A model generated the notes under the pieces. The model made no database searches. It was not told the DNA's origin and was given only the letters and a program-made list of their open reading frames with translations. From contig CP060232.1 of assembly GCA_023898645.1 (NCBI GenBank), positions 510,001 to 542,000 on the forward strand: a stretch of DNA of 32,000 nucleotides. Reading direction: 5' to 3'. Source of the DNA: Candidatus Saccharimonadota bacterium. Lineage in GTDB: Bacteria > Patescibacteriota > Saccharimonadia > Saccharimonadales > Saccharimonadaceae. The position numbers and the translations under genes were made by a program. The number at the start of each line of letters is the position of its first letter. The first letter of the stretch is position 1. Positions 1 through 28,180 of this stretch are shown piece by piece.

Positions 1-1519
1 GTTCGATCAAGATATCTAGCACGGTAGCGACGATGTTGACCTGACTATAGCGGTAAGATATTTGCTGGCCTACAGCGATGAACGGCATATAGATAATGTC
101 GCGCAATAGAGAAAGGGAGCCTTGCGGTGTGTTGACTACTTCTAGTTCGTGAATCTGACGACTCAAACGGAAAGACAGGAAGCTGGCCGTTGACAAGAAG
201 GTAAAGAATATAAAGCCTTGGACTATGTTAAATTCAATCAAGTAAAGTCCGTAAGTAAGAGCGGCAAAAGCGATAAAGAAAATCGTGGCGTACATACTAT
301 TGAAGATAATTGACGAGGTCTTCTTAGGGATTCGTAGCGGGTAGGCCTTAGTGTCGCCGTCAAATATCATGTGGGACACTTGTTTTATAACTGCCGAGGT
401 GTTGCGATCTACTGGCTTTGAAAGAGTTACGCGACTAAACGCGATGAACAGAGCTGGGAAAAATAGATTTACCGCAAACGGCGTCCACAATATATGCCCG
501 CTTATAAATATGTCGTAAGGTACTTCAACTGCAAAACCGACAAGGCCTTTGGTGATGAGAAGGAATATGACGCTGCGTATGATTCCTACATCTAGACGTT
601 TGTCGAGCGCTGTATATTCCGCTTCTATGTGACGGTGAAGGTTCTGTTCGAGTGCTTCAGGCGATTTAAGCGACTGTGCTGTCAAAGGTGCTTCTTTGCC
701 GTAGAAGCCACTGTAGATGAACCTGAGCGAAGCGCCATTCTTGCTGACGATACGTGTCATATTGACAGTCGTCTTTGCGTCGAATAGGACGTCGACCCTA
801 CGGTTGAATTGTTCAAATGCTTTGATGTCATCTATATCTTGTCGGTAACTGTCGATAAGAGCTGTTCGGATGGTTGCATTGTCGGATTTAAGTAACGATC
901 TATGTATAGCGATATAGAGAATTATTGAGAAATCTTCTTGATTGAATACTTCATAATCTTTAATTATTTTTTTGGTGTTAATTTTTTCATGCAGATAGCT
1001 ATAGGCAAAATGAGCAAACATAAGTTGCCGGATATGACTTTGCAGAGTTTGTTCGGAGCGGACAGCAAGAACATCGAGTATCCATTTTTGAAATGCGGCA
1101 CGATCATCAATGTCGTTATCGGAACCAACGTAGTTCCAGTAGGCGTTGTAATAACGTTTTATGTCACGGTCAATGATTTTAACATCGGCTTTGGTGGTGT
1201 GGTCATTGGCTAAATATTCAGCTTGCGTAAGCTCCGCAACAAGTTCATCGGCTAGGTTTTTTGTTGAAGCTTTGGCATGAAAAGACAATACTCGTCGCAG
1301 ATAACGACGAATCGCGCGCTGCTGGAGTAGATCGCCTTCGGAATATTCCGAGGCATTGCGCAATTGCTCGTAGGCTGTAGAAATGGTGTTGCCAACCGTC
1401 GGGATATGGATAGTATCTTTTTCACGCCGGGCAAGTATGTCAGCTTCGTATGTGTCAATTCGTTTTAGCGAATCAGCAAGCAATCGCCCTAGCTGGCTTA
1501 TCTGAGAATTTTGATTCAC
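1..1519 (-). CDS. Hypothetical multi-pass membrane protein; C-terminal end runs off the left edge of the window; absent from the supplied ORF track
   Basis: I translated the reverse strand by hand. The frame is open from a GTG at 1519 down to position 1 (506 codons), with an in-frame TGA just upstream at 1547-1549. Product begins VNQNSQISQLGRLLADSLKRIDTYEADILARREKD. The N-terminal ~330 aa look soluble and helical, followed by at least 4 hydrophobic helices (IIRSVIFLLITKGLVGFAV, ILWTPFAVNLFFPALFIAF, IIFNSMYATIFFIAFAALTYGLYLI, IVQGFIFFTFLSTASFLSF). It lies directly downstream of pepN on the same strand. The two short track ORFs here are in other frames and have odd composition. Confidence 0.6.
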   Translation of the reverse strand, partial: MNQNSQISQLGRLLADSLKRIDTYEADILARREKDTIHIPTVGNTISTAYEQLRNASEYSEGDLLQQRAIRRYLRRVLSFHAKASTKNLADELVAELTQAEYLANDHTTKADVKIIDRDIKRYYNAYWNYVGSDNDIDDRAAFQKWILDVLAVRSEQTLQSHIRQLMFAHFAYSYLHEKINTKKIIKDYEVFNQEDFSIILYIAIHRSLLKSDNATIRTALIDSYRQDIDDIKAFEQFNRRVDVLFDAKTTVNMTRIVSKNGASLRFIYSGFYGKEAPLTAQSLKSPEALEQNLHRHIEAEYTALDKRLDVGIIRSVIFLLITKGLVGFAVEVPYDIFISGHILWTPFAVNLFFPALFIAFSRVTLSKPVDRNTSAVIKQVSHMIFDGDTKAYPLRIPKKTSSIIFNSMYATIFFIAFAALTYGLYLIEFNIVQGFIFFTFLSTASFLSFRLSRQIHELEVVNTPQGSLSLLRDIIYMPFIAVGQQISYRYSQVNIVATVLDILIE

Positions 1520-1574
1520 GAAACCAATTATAACCTTTCTTTGACGTCAATGCGGGACAATCACGAATATTAAA

Positions 1575-4822: not shown

Positions 4823-5793
4823 ATTTGACGTTTGTCTGTCTCGTCTTCAATTTCATGCCCAACGATTTCTTCAATCAGATCCTCAATAGTGACGATACCT
4901 ACGATGTAATCGTCTTTTTCAATTGGAATCAAGTGAGAGCTGGTCGAAATAAACCTACGAAGCATTGTGTCGAGTGCGGTGCGACTCCCAACCATCTGGA
5001 CTGGATAAAGAGGAAGATCGTCTACGGTATAGTCTGTGTCATCAAAGTCGATATCAACTAGATCTTTCATAAGAAGTACACCATAGCAGTGCGTAAGCTT
5101 CTGATTAAAGATAGGTATGCGACTGCGACCAACTGCTTTGATTTCGTCTATCTTTTCTGCAGTTAAGTGCGTACCGGGTTCTAGCCAGAAAACATGATTA
5201 ATGTGCAGCATTATATCGCTTACTCGTTTTTCACTAAGTTGCAACGCTCCACGGATGATTTCAACTTCATCGTTATCAAGTTCGCTTTCTCTATGACCAA
5301 TATGCTCACTAATGAGCACGCCGAGTTCTTGTCTGGTGTGTAGCTGAGTGCGCTGTTCGCTGAATAAGTAGTCTAGTAAAAGCTGAAGAGGCTTAGATAT
5401 GGGGTAGGTTATGAAGATCATCAGTTTAATAACAGGGACTAAGAAAGACATGTAACGAAGTGCATCTCGGCTAAATAATGCCTGAGGAAGTATTTCTCCG
5501 AAAACGACGATCAAGACAGTCGTAATAAAGCCAGCAAGCAAGCCGTATAAAAAGCTTTCTAAAAATAATGATGTCGCAGACACTGCGGCCACGTTGCTTA
5601 GGAGAATTGCGGCTAGTGTGAGGTGGGTATTTTTTCTAAACGGATAAACACGTTTAGCTTTAGTATTCCCAAGTTTTGCTTTGCGATGGAGGTCGCCTAA
5701 ATCGAGTGACATGAGAGCAATATTCAAACCCGAACAGAGGGCAGACAATCCAATCAGCAGGACGACGATGATAATAGTAAGTAATATACTCAC
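4801..5793 (-). CDS. CNNM/DUF21 transmembrane domain plus CBS-pair protein (CorB/TlyC-like putative Mg2+/Co2+ transporter, 'hemolysin family')
   Basis: 330 aa with a GTG start. N-terminal 4-helix DUF21 region (ILLTIIIVVLLIGLSALCSGLNIALMSL...) is followed by a CBS pair (RVSDIMLHINHVFWL ... IVGIVTIEDLIEEIVG). The CorC_HlyC C-terminal domain is absent. The 3' end overlaps the convergent nuclease gene by 22 nt. Confidence 0.85.
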   Translation of the reverse strand: MSILLTIIIVVLLIGLSALCSGLNIALMSLDLGDLHRKAKLGNTKAKRVYPFRKNTHLTLAAILLSNVAAVSATSLFLESFLYGLLAGFITTVLIVVFGEILPQALFSRDALRYMSFLVPVIKLMIFITYPISKPLQLLLDYLFSEQRTQLHTRQELGVLISEHIGHRESELDNDEVEIIRGALQLSEKRVSDIMLHINHVFWLEPGTHLTAEKIDEIKAVGRSRIPIFNQKLTHCYGVLLMKDLVDIDFDDTDYTVDDLPLYPVQMVGSRTALDTMLRRFISTSSHLIPIEKDDYIVGIVTIEDLIEEIVGHEIEDETDKRQIQAIGNG

Positions 5794-5807
5794 AGAATGA
5801 TTACCAT

Positions 5808-5816
5808 TTTATAACA
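5808..5816 (-). promoter_or_regulatory. Extended -10 promoter (TGTTATAAA) for the CNNM gene
   Basis: The reverse strand reads TGtTATAAA, with 14 nt to the GTG start at 5793. This implies a very short leader. Confidence 0.35.
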
Positions 5817-5846
5817 GTATGGTCGTTCTAGTAAAGGCCGAGTATT

Positions 5847-6386
5847 TTATGACGGCTGGCCATCCCTGTTATTTTCTAATAGTGCCCAAATGTCATGCCA
5901 TGGCATGCCTTTTTTTCGTAGAAACAACATCTCGAATTCACGTTTATTGCGCTGGATGTCGTCATCTAGCTCTTTCATTTCTGCTTCGTTTGAAGGGATA
6001 AAAAAGTCGTCAAACGATTGCGGCGCAGGTATGACGACGCCGTTTTTTTCGTCTTGTTTAGTACGCGGCCATACGTGAAAATGCACGTGATCCATTTTGA
6101 TTCCGTTTTCCTTTTGAAGTGGTTGTGACTTTTGCGTGACGACAGAGCCGTACCCAAAATCCACGACATCGGCGAGAGACTCTGCTTCGTAAACGATTCG
6201 ACCCAATAAAGCTGCGCCCATCTTGCTGGCGACAGTATAGTGCTCATCAGGGACGACTAGTAGATGATTGCGTCGGAACCTTGGTTTAGAAAAAAATGAT
6301 ATAAAACCATCCCCTCTGTTTACTATAAGGTTTTTCATGGAGTCGTCCGGCTGACAAAATGCACAGTCTGGTTTCTTTTCGGGCAT
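5847..6386 (-). CDS. HIT (histidine triad) family nucleotide hydrolase/transferase
   Basis: Histidine triad HVHFHVWPR and an N-terminal CAFC motif. I prefer the ATG at 6386 because AAGGAG sits 5 nt upstream of it. The track start at 6401 would place that SD inside the ORF. It carries a C-terminal extension of ~45 aa beyond a minimal HinT. Confidence 0.85.
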   Translation of the reverse strand: MPEKKPDCAFCQPDDSMKNLIVNRGDGFISFFSKPRFRRNHLLVVPDEHYTVASKMGAALLGRIVYEAESLADVVDFGYGSVVTQKSQPLQKENGIKMDHVHFHVWPRTKQDEKNGVVIPAPQSFDDFFIPSNEAEMKELDDDIQRNKREFEMLFLRKKGMPWHDIWALLENNRDGQPS

Positions 6387-6499: not shown

Positions 6500-7657
6500 A
6501 TGGAAGACTTAAACATTAAACAACTTACACTGGCCGTCCGTACGATTGCTGAGGAAAAGAACCTACCCGAAGAGACTGTCATGAGCGTTATTGAGCAGGC
6601 GATTGCCGCCGCTTGGCGCCGAGACAACGGAGAGCGCGATCAAGAAGTGCGCGCAGTACTTAACGTTAATGACGGCACTGCAAAAGTATTCGTAGCTCGT
6701 GAAGTAGTAGAGATCGTCGGAAGCGACGCTGTCGAAATCAGCCTAGAAGACGCGAAGAAAGTAAAGAAAGACGCTGAGATTGGTGATGTAATTGAAGAAG
6801 AGCACGAAGTCGAGTCATTTGGCCGCGTGGCAGCTCAGACCGCCAAGCAAGTCGTGTTGCAGCGTCTTCGTGAAGCAGAGCGTGAAGTCGTACTAGCTGA
6901 ATACGAAGACAAAATCGGTACCGTTGTTACCGGTACTGTGCAGCGTGTAGAACCACGTGTGATTCGCGTAGAATTAGGTAAAGCTGCAGGTATCATTCCT
7001 CAGAGTGAACAGATTCAGGGCGAGTACTACAGTGTCGGTTCTCGCATAAAGGTATTTATAAAGGACATCGAGCGCGATAATCGTGGTCCTCAATTGATTT
7101 TGAGCCGCGGTAACGAATCCTTTGTCGAATACTTGTTCCGTCAGGAAGTTCCTGAGATGGAAACTGGCGCCGTTGAGATTAAGACCATCGCTCGTGAGGC
7201 TGGTCGTCGTACGAAATTGGCGGTTGCTAGCACTGTACCTGGCGTGGATCCTGTCGGTACGTTTGTTGGCGGTCACGGTACTCGCGTGCAGGCTGTTATG
7301 AACGAAATCGGCGATCAGGAAAAAATCGACATCATCACATATGATGAGAATCCCGAACAATTTATTCGCAATGCGCTGAGCCCAGCAGAAGTTGCAAAAG
7401 TTGAAATTGACGAAGCGGCTAAAAACGCAAAGGTTTACGTAGCTGAAGATCAGCAATCAATTGCAATTGGGCGCGGCGGTCAGAATGTTCGCTTGGCGTC
7501 ACGCTTAACTGGTTACGAACTCGACATTGAGACTGCGCAACCAGAAAAGAAGGTAGAGCCAGTCAAACCAAAGAAAAACATCGAAGACAGTCTGTTTAGC
7601 GCTATCGAAGAAGCTGGTGACGAAGTTAAAGAAAGCGAAGAGAAGAGCGAAGAATAG
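6500..7657 (+). CDS. nusA: Transcription termination/antitermination factor NusA
   Basis: 385 aa with NusA N-terminal domain, S1 domain (GTVVTGTVQRVEPRVIRVELG) and two KH domains (second contains GRGGQNVRLASRLTG). Acidic/lysine-rich tail and no AR1/AR2 repeats. No rimP upstream or infB downstream in this window. Confidence 0.95.
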   Translation: MEDLNIKQLTLAVRTIAEEKNLPEETVMSVIEQAIAAAWRRDNGERDQEVRAVLNVNDGTAKVFVAREVVEIVGSDAVEISLEDAKKVKKDAEIGDVIEEEHEVESFGRVAAQTAKQVVLQRLREAEREVVLAEYEDKIGTVVTGTVQRVEPRVIRVELGKAAGIIPQSEQIQGEYYSVGSRIKVFIKDIERDNRGPQLILSRGNESFVEYLFRQEVPEMETGAVEIKTIAREAGRRTKLAVASTVPGVDPVGTFVGGHGTRVQAVMNEIGDQEKIDIITYDENPEQFIRNALSPAEVAKVEIDEAAKNAKVYVAEDQQSIAIGRGGQNVRLASRLTGYELDIETAQPEKKVEPVKPKKNIEDSLFSAIEEAGDEVKESEEKSEE

Positions 7658-24277: not shown

Positions 24278-24362
24278 TGGTACGGCAGAAAGGACTTGAA
24301 CCTTCACGCCCGGAGGCACTAGCTCCTAAGGCTAGCGTGTCTACCAATTCCACCACTGCCGC
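24278..24362 (-). tRNA. tRNA-Leu, anticodon UAG, class II with long variable arm, CCA encoded
   Basis: The reverse complement folds as follows. Acceptor GCGGCAG/CTGCCGT. D arm GTG-GAATTGGTAG-CAC. Anticodon arm CTAGC-CTTAGGA-GCTAG. Variable arm TGCCTCCGGGCGT. T arm GAAGG-TTCAAGT-CCTTT. Ends in ACCA. Confidence 0.92.
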
Positions 24363-24399
24363 ACAAGAGAACTGAGATTGTTAAATTTTGATTAAGATT

Positions 24400-24408
24400 A
24401 TTATACCA
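24400..24408 (-). promoter_or_regulatory. Extended -10 promoter (TGGTATAAT) of tRNA-Leu(UAG)
   Basis: The reverse strand reads TGgTATAAT about 38 nt upstream of the mature tRNA 5' end. Confidence 0.5.
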
Positions 24409-24452
24409 AATTTTCCTCGGTAAAACTACTCTTTTTGAATTCATGGTGCTTG

Positions 24453-26182: not shown

Positions 26183-26632
26183 ATGATTCATTCTCACACG
26201 AAACCTGATAACGAGGTTTTCTTAGACAAGCACGGCATCATCCACTGTGTGTATTATGGTCAACAGACTGCTCAGACTTTAGAGCCGACTCATGAGCGGA
26301 CGATGAAGATAATCGTAAATTTAATAGCAAACGATAGTCCCGTATGGATACTTGCCGACATCAGACGTATGGGTCAATACGATGTACCTGCGCGATTTGT
26401 TGAAATGCACGCCAGGACAGCGATTCCGTATTGGAAGATGGCAATCGTTACTTCTGAACCTGGTTCAATCGGTGAAAGAATCTCACGACAGCTGACTGCC
26501 ATGTCTGGTAGAAAGGGTGAGATTCGCTATTTTAAGCGCGAAGACGATGCGAGAGGGTGGTTACTTGCCGCTCAGAACGGAGGAAGATGGGAGCCAAAAA
26601 TAAACCAACCGTCTCAATGGAGTGCTTCGTAA
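26183..26632 (+). CDS. Hypothetical protein, possibly SpoIIAA-like (STAS fold)
   Basis: 149-aa ORF. The pattern looks like STAS/SpoIIAA-like proteins (WILADIRRMGQYDVPARFVEMH ... WKMAIVTSEP ... IRYFKREDDARGWL). This rests on resemblance only, not on a diagnostic motif. Confidence 0.45.
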   Translation: MIHSHTKPDNEVFLDKHGIIHCVYYGQQTAQTLEPTHERTMKIIVNLIANDSPVWILADIRRMGQYDVPARFVEMHARTAIPYWKMAIVTSEPGSIGERISRQLTAMSGRKGEIRYFKREDDARGWLLAAQNGGRWEPKINQPSQWSAS

Positions 26633-26646
26633 GAGGTAAGTTTCAT

Positions 26647-26665
26647 TGGTACGGATGAGAGGACT
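26647..26665. repeat. 19-nt direct repeat of the tRNA-Leu(CAG) 3' end (att-like duplication)
   Basis: TGGTACGGATGAGAGGACT at 26647-26665 versus TGGTACAGATGAGAGGACT at 26832-26850, a match of 18 of 19 in the same orientation. Confidence 0.85.
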
Positions 26666-26736
26666 ATCGGCTAAAGCCTCCTTCGTTTGCTCATTCTGGC
26701 AAAAGTAAACTTTTCCAGAATTTCACCGCACTGCGC
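26647..26736 (-). pseudogene. Decayed tRNA-Leu-like remnant
   Basis: Reverse strand: GCGCAGTGCGGTGAAATTCTGG...GGAGG-CTTTAGCCGATAGT-CCTCT-CATCCGT-ACCA. The 5' end resembles the tRNA-Leu(CAG) 5' end (GCGCAGATGTGGCGGAATTGG). The T stem GGAGG/CCTCT and the 3' end are retained. The T loop is expanded to 14 nt, the acceptor no longer pairs, and a 29-nt hairpin (26693-26721) replaces the D/anticodon region. Confidence 0.45.
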
Positions 26737-26740
26737 GACC

Positions 26741-26776
26741 CTCCACTTCAAATTTTGCATGCAAAATTTCGTGGAG
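26741..26776. repeat. 36-nt imperfect palindrome with a perfect 20-bp core, AAATTTTGCATGCAAAATTT
   Basis: CTCCAC-TTC-AAATTTTGCATGCAAAATTT-C-GTGGAG. The core (26750-26769) is its own reverse complement. The outer arms CTCCAC/GTGGAG match the T-stem sequence of the adjacent tRNA-Leu. Confidence 0.9.
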
Positions 26777-26797
26777 ATTCAAGTCCGACGGCGACCA
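26770..26797 (+). other. Inverted copy of the tRNA-Leu(CAG) T-arm, followed by an acceptor-like tail ending in ACCA
   Basis: CGTGGAGATTCAAGTCC (26770-26786) matches the reverse complement of 26846-26862 (CGTGGAGGTTCAAGTCC) at 16 of 17 positions. It is followed by GACGGCGACCA. It does not fold as a tRNA. Confidence 0.6.
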
Positions 26798-26800
26798 AAT

Positions 26801-26823
26801 AAAAAACCGACACGAAGGTCGAT
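26801..26823 (-). terminator. Weak candidate terminator for tRNA-Leu(CAG)
   Basis: On the minus strand, CGAC-CTTCGT-GTCG is followed by GTTTTTTATTT. The stem is only 4-6 bp, so this call is weak. Confidence 0.3.
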
Positions 26824-26831
26824 TCTTTATT

Positions 26832-26918
26832 TGGTACAGATGAGAGGACTTGAACCTCCACGCCCTTGCGGGCACTAGCACCTGAAGCTAGCGCGTCTAC
26901 CAATTCCGCCACATCTGC
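26832..26918 (-). tRNA. tRNA-Leu, anticodon CAG, class II with long variable arm, CCA encoded
   Basis: The reverse complement folds as follows. Acceptor GCAGATG/CATCTGT. D arm GCGG-AATTGGTAG-ACGC. Anticodon arm CTAGC-TTCAGGT-GCTAG. Variable arm TGCCCGCAAGGGCGT. T arm GGAGG-TTCAAGT-CCTCT. Ends in ACCA. Confidence 0.92.
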
Positions 26919-26922
26919 GCAT

Positions 26923-27318
26923 TGTAAAAGTTATGTACGGGTCGTAGTTTATCGTCTTTACGGACCTTACGCGCTACGCGTCTACGCATATTTGCATTCA
27001 CGCAGACTGCCAATTGCGAACTGTAAAAGTTATGTACGGGTCGTAGTTTATCGTCTTTACGGACCTTACGCGCTACGCGTCTACGCATATTTGCATTCAC
27101 GCAGACTGCCAATTGCGAACTGTAAAAGTTATGTACGGGTCGTAGTTTATCGTCTTTACGGACCTTACGCGCTACGCGTCTACGCATATTTGCGTTCACG
27201 CAGACCGCCAACTGCGCATTGTAAAAATTATGTACGGGTCATAGTTTATCGTCTTTACGGACTTTGACGTGCTCGCATCTACACATGATGTACGTTTCAC
27301 ACAGCCCCCCAAGCGAAC
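26923..27318. repeat. Tandem repeat, 99-bp unit x 4, starting 4 nt from the tRNA-Leu(CAG) 5' end
   Basis: Units start at 26923, 27022, 27121 and 27220 (TGTAAAAGTTATGTACGGGTCG...). By my reading, copies 1 and 2 are identical over 99 of 99 nt and copy 3 differs at 5 positions clustered in its last 25 nt. Copy 4 (27220-27318) is clearly diverged but alignable throughout. Confidence 0.95.
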
Positions 27319-27370
27319 GTCATTTACAGCATCGAAAATTATAACCCATTACAAACCCAGTCGCAACGAC

Positions 27371-28180
27371 TTACCGGGAAGGTGTGCCCAATATACTCAC
27401 GACAAGTGCGGCTACGATAACGAGTGTAGATAGTGCTAGCAGAAGGATGAATGGTAGTGCGAGTGTTAGCCAAGAAAGCCAGTGCGCTTGAGGTTTTTTG
27501 TTACCAACGCTTTCGAATTGTTTGTAGAGTGTCGCGTTTACCCCGGTTGAGACGATTGAAGAAACTACGCCGAGCGTGAGTATATTAAGTAAAGCATTCG
27601 AGGCGTAGGTAGTTATCCATCCGTTTTTTGTCATACGAATGCTTTCTTTGATGGCAGCATTGCCGCGCAGATTTTTCTTTTCATCATAAAACGCTACCCC
27701 GGCTAGACTATATCGAATAGACATAATGATGCCAGGTACGATAAAAAGGAGTGTCCACAGAAGTAGCTTGGTAAAGATAATAACTTGTAGCCATAGATAC
27801 GGCCAAAGGTTCTCGAACGCATTACGAAAAGCTACCTGTAGGCTTACTTTGTGACCTCGGGCTAGTTGGGCCGACGTGTACGAAGCAACCCCATTAAAAA
27901 GAGCGGAGACCATGACCACGGCCAGCCCAATTATGGCGAAGCTTTCAATTGTGAATATCCATTCGTTAATTGACCAAGCGCGAATTGTAGAAGAAACAGC
28001 ATCAAATGAATATTTAGTAGGATCCGGAGAGATACTATTTGTAAACAAGTTGAGTGTCGACAGGATGATAAAAAGTATGAAAATAGGCTGGGCTCTGTTA
28101 GCGAGCAAGCTAATACCGTTACTCGCTATAAAAAACGGGTTATTTTCGAACTGATTATGTGGTTTAGATTTATTTGCCAT
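27371..28180 (-). CDS. Hypothetical multi-pass membrane protein
   Basis: 269-aa ORF with about 6 hydrophobic helices (PIFILFIILSTLNLF, IFTIESFAIIGLAVVMVSALF, LWLQVIIFTKLLLWTLLFIVPGIIM, LLNILTLGVVSSIV, LSWLTLALPFILLLALSTLVIVAALVVSIL). I recognise no catalytic motif. Confidence 0.6.
   Translation of the reverse strand: MANKSKPHNQFENNPFFIASNGISLLANRAQPIFILFIILSTLNLFTNSISPDPTKYSFDAVSSTIRAWSINEWIFTIESFAIIGLAVVMVSALFNGVASYTSAQLARGHKVSLQVAFRNAFENLWPYLWLQVIIFTKLLLWTLLFIVPGIIMSIRYSLAGVAFYDEKKNLRGNAAIKESIRMTKNGWITTYASNALLNILTLGVVSSIVSTGVNATLYKQFESVGNKKPQAHWLSWLTLALPFILLLALSTLVIVAALVVSILGTPSR

Follow-up and report, generated by a model that had tools for sequence, protein, structure and literature searches.

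In Escherichia coli, the tandem repeats of the tyrT-tyrV locus are co-transcribed with the transfer RNA (tRNA) and processed into a small RNA, and are thought to have arisen by unequal recombination. The 3' external transcribed spacer (3'ETS) of leuZ, cut from its tRNA precursor, acts as a sponge for small RNAs in the same species, and P1 and P2 of the rrn loci are tandem promoters of stable-RNA operons. Here we report a tandem array lying directly 5' of a tRNA-Leu(CAG) gene in a 32,000-nucleotide stretch of Candidatus Saccharimonadota DNA (contig CP060232.1, positions 510,001 to 542,000; "the window" denotes this whole stretch). The unit of the array is an element that is conserved in other Saccharibacteria, tied to tRNA-Leu genes, positioned downstream of a conserved promoter, non-coding, and outside known families.

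On balance we think it probable that the array consists of four tandem copies (c1, nearest the tRNA, to c4, nearest the promoter) of a conserved tRNA-Leu-derived leader element of ~100 nt, co-transcribed from the upstream promoter P1, with recombination changing the copy number. The novelty lies in the conserved element, of which the array is one amplified instance.

A proposed leader element before two tRNA-Leu genes

Relatives of the locus were collected as 27 Saccharibacteria loci from a protein-based scan and four more from exact protein look-ups (given here as L numbers). A UPF0259 gene followed in the same orientation by tRNA-Leu(CAG) recurs in ~20 Saccharibacteria genomes, often with tRNA-Leu(TAG) ~2.5 kb further on. 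The element stands before tRNA-Leu(CAG) in 13 of 25 loci beyond the window and before tRNA-Leu(TAG) in nine of 11 loci (nine of the 10 related genomes; Table 1). In all 22 of these other loci, and likewise in the window, it occupies the same strand, immediately 5' of the tRNA-Leu and downstream of a conserved promoter. Relatives with the element at the CAG gene have one homologue between a TTGCGA-17-TATA(A/C)T promoter and the tRNA, and P1 is conserved with or without the element. Even lineages that share only 39-45% identity with the window in the neighbouring protein (L027, L033) have the element. A first-pass annotation, made from the letters of the window, had advised a search for the unit in related genomes and had considered a slippage scar among its explanations; the homologues found at 22 other tRNA-Leu loci, with a single copy before tRNA-Leu(CAG) and tRNA-Leu(TAG) in many Saccharibacteria, speak against a slippage scar or an isolated oddity. 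In L037 an extra open reading frame (ORF) of 206 amino acids with no Pfam hit (5264-5884, minus strand) sits between the UPF0259 gene and the tRNA-Leu promoter, with promoter and element intact downstream of it.

A covariance model (R1) was built from nine homologues and spans the 5' tRNA-like segment, the GAA hairpin, AAAT, GTAGAC, the hairpin 3 region and the TAAACTA box. Within the window it recovers both c4, which is in its seed (27216-27317; 70.3 bits, E = 9.5e-17), and c1, which is not (26919-27019; 51.3 bits, E = 2.8e-11). Over ~236 kb its matches fall only at these tRNA-Leu sites, apart from a weak one (E = 0.27) to the phage contig L007. Neither the units nor their homologues match a family in Rfam 15, and between 26600 and 27450 of the window the units have no Rfam match even at E <= 10; literature searches found no description of the element. 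The unit was also rejected as a tRNA or pseudo-tRNA (RF00005), ARAGORN and Rfam finding only the two genuine tRNA-Leu genes: the units are without T arm and 3' acceptor strand, and keep tRNA positions 1-13 and ~19-27 and a variable-arm-like arm. ORFs cross the array because its period of 99 is 33 x 3 (26866-27267, plus strand, 133 amino acids; 26897-27211, minus strand, 104 amino acids), and their products are exact 33-residue repeats. Among the homologues, which measure 92-106 nt, no frame is consistently stop-free, and coding potential, including a tpr-like protein-coding repeat, was rejected since no frame is conserved across them.

From its 5' end, the element begins with a copy of tRNA positions 1-13 (GCNGAUGUGGYGG), followed at the position of the D-loop by hairpin 1, UGCG(U)-GAA(A)-(A)CGCA, and AAAU. 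Next come GUAGAC(G/A)CG, a match to tRNA positions ~19-27 that supplies the 5' strand of hairpin 2, and then hairpin 3, usually GUC-CGNAAN-GAC; the 3' part consists of the box UAAACUA, 2-12 nt, UACAU, and another 2-16 nt to the tRNA. Hairpin 1 lies 83-91 nt from the tRNA start at every locus with a plain single copy, and 141-168 nt from it in L008, L009 and L016 (CAG), which carry a second module or a partial second copy. That second leader module, ~85 nt long and reading GAGCTTTAGGGGG...GTTTTTCGAATTCATTTCGAAAAC...GGAGGGGAGAACCCCTCC with two clear hairpins, is found between the element (or promoter) and tRNA-Leu(CAG) in four genomes; it has no Rfam match in the three that were scanned (L008, L009, L019).

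Conservation is strongly graded along the element. Across 10 genomes, mean pairwise identity is highest in hairpin 1 with AAAT (0.88), and amounts to 0.72 in the GTAGAC region, 0.66 in the 5' mimic, ~0.5 in the regions of hairpins 2 and 3 and 0.36 in the tail, while the 30 nt upstream of the element are at 0.27, the level of unrelated sequence. Since hairpin 1 has no counterpart in the tRNA, its similarity is not upheld by exchange with the tRNA, and to judge from these alignments selection must be maintaining it.

The small hairpins are also conserved as pairings. In the model-based alignment 100% of the cells of hairpin 1 are paired, with GC in 13, GU in six and AU in two sequences at one position, and none of 500 shuffles reached its pairing or its covariation score. 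In the second copy in L016 the stem has been exchanged (GGUUCUUGC/GCAAGACC) while the GAA loop keeps its place, and at this position the TAG copy of L037 has CUUCGG. Hairpin 2 varies with tRNA type (GACG/CGUC versus GACAC/GUGUC or CACG/CGUG), and hairpin 3 varies but stays a hairpin (GUC/GAC versus CUCG/CGAG versus GAGUAU/AUACUC), being swapped for unrelated hairpins in L021, L019, L020 and L011. On the raw MAFFT alignment, RNAalifold recovered a 4-pair helix only, a compensating 1-nt insertion and deletion having shifted the register of the hairpin; the covariance-model alignment resolved this. The three small hairpins are thus supported, and a compact global fold is not. Because the stems switch sequence yet stay paired, a reading at the RNA level is more likely, though not proven, than one as a DNA site.

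The array, its probable descent from tRNA-Leu and its copy number

Tandem Repeats Finder reports one array at 26916-27286 (period 99, 3.7 copies, 94% matches, score 635). In a 99-bp register with unit starts at 26923, 27022, 27121 and 27220, read on the minus (tRNA) strand and compared without gaps, c1 and c2 are identical at 99 of 99 positions and c3 matches c1 at 94, differing at unit positions 1, 3, 8, 14 and 26. Both the repeat finder and these identities agree with the first-pass description of four 99-bp units abutting the 5' end of tRNA-Leu(CAG), two of them identical and a third with five differences. That description called c4 degenerate, but it is better seen as a divergent copy whose structure is intact: c4 shares 67-68 of 99 positions with the other units and the divergence is uneven, its final 42 nt matching c3 at 40 of 42, and the divergent 5' half retains a fully paired hairpin, UGUGU-GAA-ACGUA. 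The 3' halves of the four units are homogenised to this same 40/42, whereas their 5' starts read GTTCGC in c1, c2 and c4 and the tRNA-junction sequence in c3. Every unit terminates in (C)ATAA(C/T)TTTTACA, which also directly precedes the tRNA, as the first-pass annotation had noted in describing units that end in the leader of the tRNA itself. Short-read contigs from four independent samples reproduce the sequence from the gene through c4 and c3 exactly, and every one of them stops inside c3, as expected of a true repeat.

On the minus strand the order is P1, c4, c3, c2, c1, tRNA-Leu(CAG) and a terminator-like hairpin (Table 1). A promoter scan of 26600-27500 found P1 as the sole sigma70-type match, with a predicted transcription start at ~27331. 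The tRNA has the acceptor stem GCAGAUG/CAUCUGU, A73 and an encoded CCA. Its cmscan alignment begins GCAGAUG, which puts the mature 5' end at G 26918 and the end of the array 4 nt before it; the start of the tRNA had been quoted as "GCGCAGATG...", of which the GC is part of the leader.

Several features link the element to the gene that it precedes. In c1-c3, GTAGACGCG-TAGC aligns to tRNA positions 18-32 with a score equalled by only 7-11 of 2000 shuffles, in keeping with the tRNA-like segments that had been proposed. In relatives the 5' segment and the 5' end of the tRNA agree at 13 of 13 positions, and both this segment and GTAGAC(G/A)CG carry the CAG- or TAG-type bases of the adjacent tRNA (CG in 11 versus UA in seven at the D-stem-like pair). 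The acceptor-like part tracks lineage changes of the tRNA (GAUG versus GAG), hairpin 3 (GUCCGCAAUGAC) resembles the tRNA-Leu variable arm of relatives (GUCCGCAAGGAC), and the length of the unit is that of a tRNA plus spacer. These tRNA-type bases, the lineage tracking, the likeness of hairpin 3 to the variable arm and the unit length point to descent of the element from a tandem tRNA-Leu copy, in which D-loop, anticodon arm and 3' third would have been remodelled. The unit had been described as a mimic of the 5' part of the tRNA, bearing an insertion and followed by the tRNA's own leader, and we find the same composition; the tRNA likeness does include the 5' half, but hairpin 3 and the unit length extend it beyond the limit that had been drawn there.

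The repeated tRNA-like segments form direct repeats ~100 bp apart, between which copy number could change. Slippage or unequal recombination would join the tRNA-like segments or 3' halves of a module and the 5' part of the real tRNA, and unequal exchange would either duplicate a module or delete it, the tRNA then landing where the mimic stood. Deletion predicts that the tRNA takes the mimic's place relative to the promoter, and element-free loci show exactly that, with tRNA starts ~13-36 nt past the -10 hexamer as against mimic starts ~7-46 nt past it in loci with the element. Presence and absence are independent at the two tRNA loci of one genome (in L012 and L023 the TAG gene has the element and the CAG gene does not). 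Tandem arrays are known from three genomes: the window; L008, where at least two copies 101 bp apart follow the tRNA-Leu(TAG) promoter (6587-6723, the fetched stretch ending inside the second copy); and L016, with ~1.5 copies before tRNA-Leu(CAG) (2386-2531). The recombination model, which we infer from these sequence patterns, explains the independent presence and absence, the arrays in three genomes and the match of each mimic to its own tRNA.

The single copy in L039, the nearest relative, has a near-identical counterpart in the first part of c3 (GCAG...GTAGACGCG) and in the 5' half of c1-c3. The four copies in the window would represent a recent expansion, as the identity of c1 and c2 indicates and as had been suggested before; this expansion may be close to neutral, and c4 is presumably an older copy.

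Table 1. Features of the locus in the window (positions 1-32,000) and loci of the element family in other Saccharibacteria.
Feature	Position or loci	Strand	Description
UPF0259 gene	ORF 27371-28180		Pfam UPF0259, precomputed annotation
Promoter P1	27338..27366	-	TTGCGA-17-TATAAT; just past UPF0259 stop codon, upstream of whole array
Unit c4	27220..27318	-	promoter-proximal copy; 5' tRNA-like segment degraded (TTCGCTTGGGGGG)
c4 hairpin 1	27291-27303	-	UGUGU-GAA-ACGUA
Unit c3	27121..27219	-	5' start ATGCGCAGTTGGCGG, the same junction sequence as at the leader/tRNA boundary
c3 hairpin 1	27191-27202	-	UGCG-UGAA-CGCA
Unit c2	27022..27120	-	identical to c1
c2 hairpin 1	27092-27103	-	UGCG-UGAA-UGCA, contains G.U pair
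Unit c1	26923..27021	-	tRNA-proximal copy
c1 hairpin 1	26993-27004	-	
c1 hairpin 2	26969-26981	-	ACGCG-UAG-CGCGU
c1 hairpin 3	26954-26965	-	GUC-CGUAAA-GAC
c1 TAAACTA box	26945-26951	-	
c1 TACAT	26933-26937	-	
ATGC	26919-26922	-	4 nt between c1 and tRNA
tRNA-Leu(CAG)	26832..26918	-	87 nt; ARAGORN and Rfam tRNA model (53.4 bits); one call starts 26835
Terminator-like inverted repeat with T-run	26794..26835	.	directly after tRNA; 18-nt arms, 89% complementary
Second copy of tRNA-Leu 3' end	26641..26665	-	AGTCCTCTCATCCGTACCA; 185 bp downstream of gene; direct repeat, 88%
CAG loci with element	L008, L009, L010, L011, L014, L016, L020, L021, L025, L027, L033, L037, L039		
CAG loci without element	L012, L013, L015, L017, L018, L019, L023, L024, L026, L028, L032, L036		12 loci
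TAG loci with element	L008, L010, L012, L014, L019, L021, L023, L037, L039		
TAG loci without element	window itself, L015		
Second leader module	L008 3960-4053; L009 3925-4011; L019 3900-3994; L039 3310-3404		

The surroundings of the array show further traces of tRNA-Leu. The downstream copy of the tRNA 3' end is of the GCGGATG/CATCCGT type, as in the tRNAs of relatives; an inverted T-arm-like piece ending in ACCA lies at 26770-26800 (plus strand) and a perfect 20-nt palindrome at 26750-26769. As a set, these tRNA-Leu fragments (26641-26800) have the appearance of a scar left by an older event, a replacement or an integration, that struck the 3' end of the tRNA. The short-read contigs that approach the array from that side (L005) end at ~26722. 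The inverted repeat after the tRNA was not called by the terminator scan under its own criteria. The window's UPF0259 protein is identical to protein H6797_02640 of a metagenome-assembled genome, and its relatives all belong to Candidatus Saccharibacteria. This genome is present in the samples SRR12358676, SRR28385528, SRR28385526 and SRR14234112. The tRNA-Leu(TAG) of the window (24278-24362, minus strand; flank 24363-24420) is without the element and has an extended -10, TGGTATAAT, with TATAAT at 24400-24405, ~37 nt upstream.

Possible roles and competing explanations

We propose that the array is transcribed from P1 as a ~410-nt 5' leader of the tRNA precursor, from which RNase P would cut it off at position +1 of the tRNA. 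Transcription as a leader is most likely because P1 is the sole promoter match and is conserved in relatives. Each module would then present a 5' segment copying tRNA positions 1-13 and ~19-27, with a GAA-loop hairpin replacing the D-loop, two further small hairpins, one of them variable-arm-like, and a single-stranded TAAACUA box. A protein or RNase acting on the tRNA-Leu precursor or on the released leader probably recognises the hairpins and AU-rich boxes. More tentatively, and as a possibility for which we would not yet argue strongly, the element may constitute a hitherto undescribed structured-RNA class born from a tRNA-Leu copy; by binding a factor specific for tRNA-Leu (candidates are LeuRS, modification enzymes and processing RNases) it would control maturation or dosage of the tRNA, or it would act in trans once RNase P had released the module; amplification would then tune the dose.

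Several points weigh against transcription from P1 of a leader that works as RNA and changes in number by recombination. Transcription from P1 through the array and release of the leader by RNase P are themselves deduced from sequence. L010 and L014 hold a strong internal promoter match (TTGACA-18-TACAAT), the TAAACT box is -10-like, and in L023 TTGCGA sits 17 nt upstream of it; at least some units may therefore start transcription themselves. A globally stable fold was rejected, z-scores running from +1.33 to -2.74 in 13 homologues and lying mostly within one standard deviation of shuffles, and minimum free energies of sense and antisense strands do not differ (Wilcoxon p = 0.95, t-test p = 0.74). 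With energies ordinary and strands equal, support for structure at the RNA level comes from the small hairpins, and C-to-T mutation bias on the non-template strand could also account for the G.U bias in hairpin 1. We likewise rejected a cloverleaf in which the 5' mimic pairs with the TACAT tail, the duplex energies being no better than those of shuffled tails (mean z = -0.12). For the mimic to track the tRNA type, repeated exchange over short homologies has to be postulated. Finally, short-read contigs cannot count identical copies, and the number of identical units c1 and c2 comes from the assembly alone.

The internal promoter matches also speak for the main competing view, a tandem promoter cassette in which the 3' half of each unit is a promoter and the array multiplies tRNA-Leu start sites, either with TAAACT as -10 or with TACAT as -10 and the 3' strand of hairpin 3 as -35; the conserved 5' half would then be an upstream protein-binding region. 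The units of L010 and L014 agree with the consensus at 11 of 12 positions, the box of L023 reads TTGCGA-17-TAAACT, nAAACT, 20-30 nt ahead of the tRNA, preserves those A and T positions that a -10 cannot do without, and the four window units are nearly identical in their 3' halves. A 21-mer of this region, GTCCGTAAAGACGATAAACTA (hairpin 3 plus box), is common to the four units and occurs nowhere else in the window with up to three mismatches allowed (0 expected by chance), and it recurs, shortly before an ORF in each case, in a phage contig and another metagenomic contig. The promoter scan, however, finds no consensus within the window's units, where the first-pass annotation had entertained extra promoters; a -35/-10 pair at 16-18 nt occurs in L010 and L014 only. 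Counting 17 nt back from TAAACT, the sequence (GCGCGT, GCGCAA, CGTGTC and others) is neither -35-like nor conserved, the spacing from box to TACAT ranges over 2-12 nt, and P1 is still conserved in carriers of the element, which would be unexpected had an internal promoter taken over. Stems that change sequence and still pair fit a sequence-specific DNA site poorly, and we regard the cassette as unlikely. The two contig matches to the 21-mer deserve separate mention. It occurs exactly once in phage contig L007 (1620-1640; = L035, IMGVR_UViG_3300020201_000165), between the portal gene and the next ORF of a contig that encodes portal, large and small terminase subunits, GroEL and two tRNAs, and once in the low-GC metagenomic contig L006 (446-466), ~26 nt before an ORF with a Shine-Dalgarno sequence. 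In both, the similarity ends at 21 nt, and by a rough estimate, the size of the collection being approximate, ~0.2-0.5 chance matches are expected. An exact search of 185,579 species-representative genomes gave no match, and the hairpin 1 pattern was found in none of the viral contigs. These matches could reflect chance or a shared signal, and we treat them as unexplained rather than as evidence.

That about half of the CAG loci do without the element with no obvious consequence, that its copy number varies, that folding energies are ordinary and that the 5' mimic is degraded in c1, c2 and c4 would all be natural if the units were functionless, decaying partial duplicates of tRNA-Leu, produced by replication slippage and kept similar through exchange with the tRNA. 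Yet hairpin 1, for which the tRNA offers no template, is 88% identical as against 27%, the random level, in flanking intergenic DNA, its variants are always paired, and the element persists in lineages as distant as L027 and L033; we consider a functionless by-product distinctly improbable. The patchy distribution over two different tRNA-Leu genes, the duplicated tRNA 3' end, which reveals an earlier rearrangement of the locus, and the 21-mer common to a phage contig might instead suggest the scar or attachment site of an integrative element targeting the 5' part of tRNA-Leu, with the partial tRNA as the displaced half of the target and the conserved core as recombination sites borne by the element. 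The neighbouring genes, either housekeeping or uncharacterised, encode a SpoU methylase, HisRS, UPF0259, a SpoIIAA-like protein and an FAD oxidase, with no integrase or mobile-element gene adjacent in the window or in relatives; moreover, the element is ~100 bp everywhere, the phage similarity is confined to 21 nt, and the mimic fits the local tRNA type (CAG versus TAG), whereas a mobile element would bring its own version. This origin appears very unlikely to us, and an array over-expanded from a single-copy element by the assembler is hardly credible: c1 and c2 are identical and short-read assemblies, stopping in c3, cannot span the repeat, but c4, c3 and c1/c2 are mutually distinct, so that at least three distinct copies are needed, the c4-c3 junction is the same in the four samples, and unrelated assemblies (L008, L016) show tandem copies as well. 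We also rejected a type III toxin-antitoxin RNA array, CRISPR and a retron, no toxin, cas or reverse-transcriptase gene being adjacent.

The best explanation in our view is a transcribed leader element, with a fair chance of its being a new class of functional leader RNA. The genomes of Saccharibacteria are very small, yet ~100 nt of conserved non-coding sequence before two tRNA-Leu genes is retained by many of them, and this retention points to an unrecognised step in making or controlling tRNA-Leu. The element may be viewed as a copy of a tRNA gene turned into something else and still tracking its parent gene. Its covariance model allows a survey of the element, and cultivated Saccharibacteria would make its role testable.

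Related arrangements elsewhere

In L010 and L014 the tRNA is preceded by two sigma70-type matches in succession, which recall the tandem promoters of rrn operons. In the window the consensus occurs only upstream of the array, and the unit is far longer than a promoter, with a hairpin as its best-conserved part. The leuZ 3'ETS offers a likeness in concept, in that processing could free a functional RNA from a part of the precursor that is transcribed but lies outside the tRNA; the leader described here differs in being tRNA-derived with conserved hairpins and has no sequence relationship to the spacer, and a role in trans would be hypothetical in this case.

Partial tRNA duplications at the attachment (att) sites of islands and prophages likewise place a direct repeat of part of a tRNA beside the intact gene, and the window also holds a classic duplicate of this kind at the 3' end (26641-26665). 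Such duplications, however, usually concern the 3' part and border kilobases of integrase-bearing mobile DNA, while here the 5' part is repeated, ~85 nt of conserved DNA lies between the repeats, and no integrase is nearby.

The closest parallel remains the tyrT-tyrV locus of E. coli (L040), where Tandem Repeats Finder reports 3.1 copies of a 178-bp unit at 905-1463. This array overlaps the 3' end of tyrV (1445-1529, minus strand) by 19 nt, and rttR and tpr are annotated within it. In both cases a tandem array abuts a tRNA gene and repeats its terminal segment. The E. coli array is downstream and repeats the 3' end, in contrast to the upstream array of the window with its copies of the 5' part; the two show no similarity in sequence or by Rfam, homology to RtT RNA (rttR; RF00391) being absent at E <= 10 over 26600-27450. 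The unit described here also differs in its length of 99 bp, in having no conserved ORF, and in belonging to a family that is single-copy in many genomes at two tRNA-Leu genes. The element offers a clear case of copy-number change, apparently via short repeated tRNA segments, and a 5' counterpart of the long-known tyrT repeats.

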